64,000 bases of DNA from Eledone cirrhosa (taxonomy: Eukaryota). Every line of letters begins with the position of its first letter. Position 1 is the stretch's first letter. The DNA is taken from NCBI GenBank assembly GCA_964016885.1, contig OZ024759.1, forward strand, positions 22,506,001 through 22,570,000. The letters run 5' to 3'. Both the position numbers and the translations under genes were made by a program. The notes beneath the pieces were generated by a model that was not told the DNA's origin, did no database searches, and was given only the letters and a program-made list of their open reading frames with translations. This document shows, piece after piece, positions 33,579 through 34,181 of the stretch.

Positions 33579-33767
33579 GCGTAGTAAGGTGTATTATTGG
33601 TTGTGTGAAACGGTCCAATAACATTTTGTTAGCAATATTAAGTATTCCACGCTTTTGTATATCTCCAATTCCATTTATGGGAACAGCTAGATGATGTAAA
33701 ACGGAGTATTTGTATCAAAATAAATGCCTTCGGATCTTTATTTTGATATATATATATATATATATAT

Positions 33768-34181
33768 TAGAAAGTGAGGTTTTTTTTACAAAATGAAAAA
33801 TAACCGAGGTGTCCTACACGAGTGAAAGTATAAAGAAAAAGAGATGAAATCGAAAATGCAACTGGAGTCTTATTTTTTTTTAAAATATATATATTTATTT
33901 GGTTCCTTTACCGGTTTCGCAGTTCTTCTGCTTTTCAAAAGGTGAGTTGAGATGGAGGGTCTGTGGTTTTTCTCACATCTGTTAGCAATATTAAGTATTC
34001 CACGCTTTTGTATATCTCCAATTCCATTTATGGGAACAGATGTGAGAAAAACAACAGACCCTCCATCTCAACTCACCTTTTGAAAAGCAGAAGAACTGCG
34101 AAACCGGTAAAGGAACCAAATAAATATATATATTTAAAAAAAAATAAGATTCCAGTTGCATTTTCGATTTCATCTCTTTTT

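Follow-up and report, generated by a model that had tools for sequence, protein, structure and literature searches.

The loop of the hairpin at 33829-34188 is very probably a genuine copy of local DNA. In the window, which is the whole stretch of 64,000 nucleotides analysed here, a 60-nt segment of the left flank (33627-33686) recurs between the arms of the hairpin (33980-34039) as a direct repeat, identical at 60 of 60 positions, and the bases just outside the two copies differ. The original prediction had claimed that the loop is identical to flank DNA lying outside the element beyond its tail, and the exact repeat confirms it. The length given there, ~58 nt, came from coordinates that end one base early. 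The microhomologies that it placed at the junctions, TGT and CAG, are present but longer: the 60-mer has TGTT (4 nt) in common with the left arm, and AACAG (5 nt) in common with the right one. Because a loop copied from the element's own flank can arise only at the target site, the inverted junction seen here, which is likely of the Penelope-like element (PLE) kind, was made or remade on the chromosome and not in a free self-primed intermediate.

Anatomy of the hairpin and source of its loop

The element is a non-coding fragment of ~420 nt, laid out as (TA)n, a 61-nt tail, an arm, the loop, an inverted arm, and (TA)n. Its parts, the source of the loop and two further copies of the same family are as follows.

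33627..33686, plus strand: source segment in the left flank, 60 nt, starting with TGTT and ending with AACAG; exact match to 33980-34039
33746..33767, no strand: left (TA)n tract at the tail end; putative priming site of the tail-bearing cDNA
33768..33828, minus strand: tail, 61 nt, one-sided (the element here reads in the minus-strand sense); 98% match at 47166-47217, 89% at 57919-57981
33829..33983, minus strand: direct arm, a 5'-truncated pseudo-LTR (pLTR) fragment contiguous with the tail; 90.6% match to 47032-47168
33909..33938, minus strand: minimal type I hammerhead motif of the direct arm, from the descriptor scan, with U3-A8 core and palindromic helix III
33980..34039, plus strand: copied segment; the unique loop is 33984-34034 (51 nt), with overlaps of 4 nt and 5 nt with the arms
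34035..34188, plus strand: inverted arm, tail-less; ends outward in the TATA of the arm/tail boundary, almost exactly as in the 47032 copy
34080..34109, plus strand: hammerhead motif of the inverted arm, also from the descriptor scan, with U3-A8 core and palindromic helix III
34185..34236, no strand: right (TA)n tract; putative priming site of the second cDNA
47032..47217, no strand: composite copy of the same family, made of a 137-nt inverted arm, a 3-nt overlap, and then just the last 52 nt of the tail
57919..57981, plus strand: solo tail of the same family, between two TA tracts, ending at the internal TATA

The arms (155 and 154 nt) share 152 identities, with two mismatches and one gap. 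The source lies outside the element, 59 nt to the left of the TA tract that closes the tail (33746-33767), and 297-356 nt from the tip of the hairpin. When the 60-mer was used as a query against 184 random 1-kb stretches of the window, the longest match had a median of 8 nt and a maximum of 10 nt. A 22-nt piece of the loop, with up to three mismatches allowed, matches just the two known sites in the window, and two matches were seen in none of 100 shuffles. Since neither the random stretches nor the shuffles gave anything comparable, a chance origin of the 60-mer is excluded. Beyond these two sites, no further copy of the loop was found in the 64-kb window, nor any second copy of the flank piece (33579-33747) that holds the source. 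A terminal inverted repeat of 4 bp occurs in 458 of 27432 non-microsatellite 60-mers (~1.7%); because of this rarity, the TGTT and AACAG overlaps are best read as arm sequence.

Could the 60-mer be family sequence that lies upstream of the arm, the hairpin being asymmetric, with the flank copy representing another fragment of the family or a part of one complex insertion? A precedent exists in the window: in the hairpin called H9, the 20-nt loop is family sequence (27-nt match at 26731-26757). Neither of the two other copies of the present family extends as far as the loop, the 47032 copy stopping short of it, and the flank piece, which ends in a stem-loop and (TA)n, could be transposon-derived. 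However, the flank copy and the element part ways exactly at the two limits of the 60-mer, so that a breakpoint would be needed precisely at the terminal base of the other arm. Between independent copies of the family in the window the difference is ~2-11%, whereas the 60-mer pair is identical. Moreover, the flank piece has no similarity to the hairpin families of the window beyond that of shuffles (best score 38, null maximum 44). A family origin of the 60-mer is therefore very improbable. Still less credence is due to an assembly or library artefact, such as a fold-back chimera or a mis-join. Assemblers use overlaps far longer than 4-5 nt, the arms differ by two substitutions and one indel, and both the one-sided tail and the internal start recur in independent copies. 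In favor of an artefact, both palindromes and (TA)n tracts pose difficulties for sequencing and assembly (PMC8557442).

The flank piece that holds the source is 169 nt long (33579-33747), is bordered by a dispersed repeat and the TA tract, and may itself be transposon-derived. Its folding is no better than that of shuffles (z -1.27). At 33595-33622 it contains a stretch similar to the 3' half of a hammerhead, with the core missing, ~130 nt from the TA tract; the distance from hammerhead to TA tract in the hairpin families is comparable (96-140 nt), and the piece may belong to a different element. Directly next to the TA tract that also borders the tail lies an inverted repeat of 12 bp, with 12 nt in its loop (33713-33724 and 33737-33748). 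It is the sole case among 31 complex TA-tract sides, and was equalled in 22 of 20000 shuffles, in a post hoc comparison. One possibility is that a snap-back left this scar on the same DNA end, another that the repeat is the 3' stem-loop of a different element. On the other side of the element, the start of the right flank (34237-34244) matches the end of the tail (33766-33773) over 8 nt, which are also family tail sequence. A 7-mer of this match is found, among 924 TA-tract sides, only here and at two family tails. The match may reflect homology at the target that steered priming, or it may belong to a target-site duplication, a feature that is optional in PLEs.

Likely PLE identity and the other hairpins of the window

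Judged on its non-coding anatomy, the hairpin is likely a PLE fragment. It has an inverted 5'-truncated pLTR beside a direct copy, a one-sided tail, a (TA)n target, and the hammerhead motif. Standard features of PLEs are a 5'-truncated copy in inverted orientation, a single terminal tail, and AT-rich or (TA)n targets (PMC8557442, PMC3846280). The U3-A8 core variant and a palindromic helix III have been described for PLE hammerheads, and in Schistosoma, opposite-strand pairs of hammerheads with a spacing of 100-700 bp had been recorded before (PMC4209133). The present element differs from the published PLEs in several respects: there is no coding part, the tail is 61 nt, compared to the usual 30-40 bp (PMC8557442, PMC11167929), and the inverted junction has a 51-nt loop where published junctions are short palindromes.

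A descriptor for minimal type I hammerheads was run on the whole window and on 30 Markov sequences as controls. The window gave nine matches (seven in hairpin arms, one in a solo copy of a hairpin family, and one elsewhere), and the controls gave 0-2 each, with a mean of 0.2. The predicted fold of the hammerhead region shows helices I and II, with a stability no better than that of shuffles (z -0.86). Rfam had no match in the window at gathering thresholds. Its 25 sub-threshold matches in 33300-35600 include no hammerhead; they are mostly to miRNA-precursor models that fit any long hairpin and were set aside as uninformative. [quoted passage not shown] These comprise most of the 160 non-microsatellite frames of at least 45 aa, the 12 shortest and a few tandem duplicates having been left out. 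A 96-aa frame that spans the loop and an arm also had no Pfam match. A miniature inverted-repeat DNA transposon was considered as well, and was rejected because the tail is one-sided, hammerhead motifs are present, arm lengths vary, and composite and solo-tail copies occur.

The window has nine TA-anchored hairpins of six unrelated sequence families between 21976 and 59102. With the solo fragments, all within ~50 kb, the density of likely PLE remnants is very high. The nine were picked by hand; an inverted repeat without a TA anchor (12690-12726) and three with microsatellite loops (22301-22434, 26477-26630 and 28605-28867) were left out. In 22301-22434 and 26477-26630 the microsatellite itself is the loop, with the repeats tail-to-tail, a build unlike that of the hairpins studied. 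Among the nine, only the 33829-34188 element has a flank-derived loop; the loops of the other eight match their own flanks over at most 9 nt, which is within the null. The original prediction had proposed testing, genome-wide, whether spacers longer than 15 nt map within 500 bp of their own insertion; as a rule this fails in the window, where just one of the five such loops maps to its flank. Besides the present loop, these are the loop of H9, which is family sequence, that of H4, which contains the hammerhead core of its family, that of H1, a nested palindrome with a 1-nt centre, and that of H3 (18 nt), which is unmapped. Flank copying is thus a minority outcome in the window.

Two other features of these hairpins deserve mention. 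H9 has an exact 17-mer on both sides (58843-58859 and 59145-59161), for which two matches were found in none of 100 shuffles, and ~65 nt of TA/TG microsatellite lie between the left 17-mer and the tail; the 17-mer is a probable target-site duplication. In one family, four arm ends at three loci (26727, 56726-56730 and 59061) stop within ~3 nt of each other, which suggests a fixed 5' end of the template or a natural palindrome. By the descriptor, no complete hammerhead was found in this family.

The window resembles an animal genome in being AT-rich and full of microsatellites, and its dispersed repeats may be akin to those of cephalopods. One of them has four copies (15220-15384, 37511-37681, 49284-49454 and 54663-54860) and a C2H2 zinc-finger-like stretch just under the Pfam cut-off. 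A weak match to Transposase_1 (E 0.032) at 32901-33270 is presumably a mariner-type transposase remnant. Tandem arrays are found at 1-11112 (an 81-bp satellite) and 62017-63997 (G-rich, 141 bp), and a 1.49-kb tandem duplication (95%) at 17631-20606 has a 258-aa open frame without a Pfam match.

Possible routes to the loop

The arms appear to derive from two cDNAs, one primed on each strand. We infer this two-primer origin because of four features of the related copies and of H4. First, the inverted arm of the 47032-47217 copy has no direct counterpart on which to fold back, unless one was later deleted. Second, the inverted arm begins at nearly the same internal site in this copy and in the 33829-34188 element. 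Third, the solo tail at 57919-57981 ends there. Fourth, in H4 (43198-43430), which belongs to another family, the arms are alike at 45 of 55 positions, with a C3-G8 core in one and U3-A8 in the other. The unlike arms suggest that two RNA templates were used in one insertion, age being a possible alternative. The PLE protein of anole, studied in vitro, cuts and extends both target strands, and starts reverse transcription at two sites whose interval is the tail; it is predicted to be a dimer (PMC11167929).

For the 60-mer itself, we give an even chance to a microhomology-primed templated insertion that bridged two cDNA ends during integration into (TA)n, at this one locus. Both strands of the (TA)n target would be nicked, and their 3' ends would prime reverse transcription, one at the end of the tail and the other at the internal TATA 61 nt inward. 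The product would be inverted arms with the tail on one side. Both cDNAs would halt at the same point, leaving them with identical 3' ends that are unable to pair with each other. The end of the tail-less bottom-strand cDNA would then anneal, through 5 nt, to AACAG at 33682-33686 in the left flank, on the top strand, which 5' resection would leave single-stranded. From there the cDNA end would be extended leftward by ~55 nt. Once released, it would anneal through 4 nt to the TGTT terminus of the other cDNA, and fill-in would close the hairpin. For the pairing and extension in these last two steps, a host polymerase of the end-joining type (Pol theta) is slightly favored over the RT of the element. 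Without release, an ordinary microhomology junction would be expected, with loss of the tail-bearing half, so the loop resembles an abandoned first attempt at joining.

The position of the source is compatible with these steps. In a scan of ~300 nt leftward from the junction, 33682 is the first site with at least 4 nt complementary to the tail-less cDNA end, and 33627-33630 is the first TGTT, matching the other cDNA end. This nearest-site test is symmetric and gives no order for which end primed first. The absence of differences in 60 nt is compatible with the loop being of the same age as the arms (P = 0.46), and also with a later patch. Against bridging during integration, the 51-60 nt exceed the usual Pol-theta insertion, and the 59-nt distance to the source exceeds the ≤15 bp typical of L1.

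An identical sequence would result from a single strand. The tail-bearing cDNA would leave its RNA, invade its own upstream duplex at TGTT, copy 56 nt, snap back at AACAG, recopy the arm to the internal TATA, and join the other TA end. This comes close to the original prediction, in which the polymerase jumped onto local target DNA and came back: the local copy, with microhomology at entry and exit, stands, but that route is no longer the sole option, as priming of a second cDNA would produce identical letters and agrees better with the other copies of the family. Both arms ending at the same base would follow from folding back, as would the meeting of the arms within ~20 nt in eight of the nine hairpins, for which the fold-back of one cDNA is the simpler account. 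Snap-back of R2 onto its cDNA or nearby target DNA has been reported (PMC11371274), and the R2 RT can jump templates in vitro (PMC13000458). However, duplex DNA would have to be invaded with a 4-nt primer, the 47032-47217 copy would need an extra deletion, and the unlike arms of H4 would be left unexplained. The fixed internal outer end also fits a second RT start site (PMC11167929). Overall, we consider a single-strand excursion unlikely.

A third route would separate the loop from integration altogether. Here, a near-perfect 155-bp palindrome with a short loop would have inserted first, its tip would have broken by hairpin or cruciform cleavage, and end joining would have patched the break from ~300 nt away. 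Long near-perfect palindromes are fragile, and a break at the tip likewise leaves two identical ends. The 60/60 identity does not separate the two times. Templated insertions are, moreover, a general outcome of break repair (PMC12426944). Nevertheless, the source sits close to the original target, just 59 nt from the TA tract, as against 297-356 nt from the tip; both arms are full and of equal length with nothing lost on either side, and other long hairpins of the window, with loops of 7-10 nt, remain unpatched. We therefore rate later repair as improbable, to about the same degree as the excursion of a single strand.

How PLEs form inverted repeats has been stated to be an open question (PMC8557442, PMC11167929), and one published reading of their inverted junctions is self-priming (PMC3846280). 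If bridging of two cDNA ends is generalized, inverted pLTRs of PLEs would come from two chromosomal reverse transcription reactions, started on opposite strands at the two sites that delimit the tail, the tips of the products then being connected by microhomology-mediated end joining. Loops templated by the flank would be the scar that proves such joining and excludes a free self-primed intermediate. We put this general proposal forward tentatively, as somewhat short of an even chance. A single case proves little, and its value is modest but real. With nine hairpins of six families in ~50 kb, the genome should hold enough of them to show on which side, in what orientation and how far away the sources lie, and such measurements would separate two-primer joining from fold-back and from later repair.

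Comparison with known flank-templated junctions

Patches templated by the flank have been described before at the junctions of retrotransposons, in L1 and R2. For PLEs, a literature search with little coverage of subscription papers yielded no account of such a segment at the inverted junction. In Adineta PLEs, host-DNA spacers and template jumps have been proposed at another position (PMC3846280). In the Pen1 element of Adineta, the captured host DNA is described as a 0.9-1.5 kb spacer before the 3' pLTR, and not as a copy of the element's own flank at the inversion point (PMC3846280).

Segments copied from the flank are a hallmark of end joining by Pol theta, and the loop resembles the products of Pol theta in that the enzyme primes at a microhomology across the break, extends, releases, and re-anneals at a second microhomology, the insert mapping to the flank (PMC12426944). 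Pol-theta inserts are generally <25 bp, and occasionally longer, compared to 51-60 nt here (PMC12426944). The loop was not classed as a Pol-theta (TMEJ) scar in the strict sense. Also, Pol theta joins plain chromosome ends, whereas the ends joined here would be those of cDNAs. In R2, the 3' end of the cDNA can prime on the cDNA or, less often, on nearby target DNA before the junction closes (PMC11371274), and the R2 RT can change templates in vitro (PMC13000458). The R2 snap-back, however, yields opposite-strand sequence at a cDNA-to-target junction, while the present copy is in direct orientation and lies between two arms.

Among ~3,600 somatic solo L1 insertions, 22 had copied local DNA, from templates that are typically <250 bp long and within 15 bp (10.1101/2024.08.27.596794), and three de novo insertions in a cell model, read by long reads, held nearby genomic templates (PMC11702581). 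The length limit of <250 bp holds for both L1 and the present element, but the template is usually within 15 bp in L1 and is 59 nt away here. The duplications of L1 twin priming have a median of 22 bp, whereas the arms here overlap over ~155 nt, and the consulted passages on L1 do not place a genomic template between two cDNA ends, as is proposed for this hairpin. The likeness is that in L1, too, local DNA is copied in, and that in twin priming two target ends each prime a cDNA, the two being joined by microcomplementarity.
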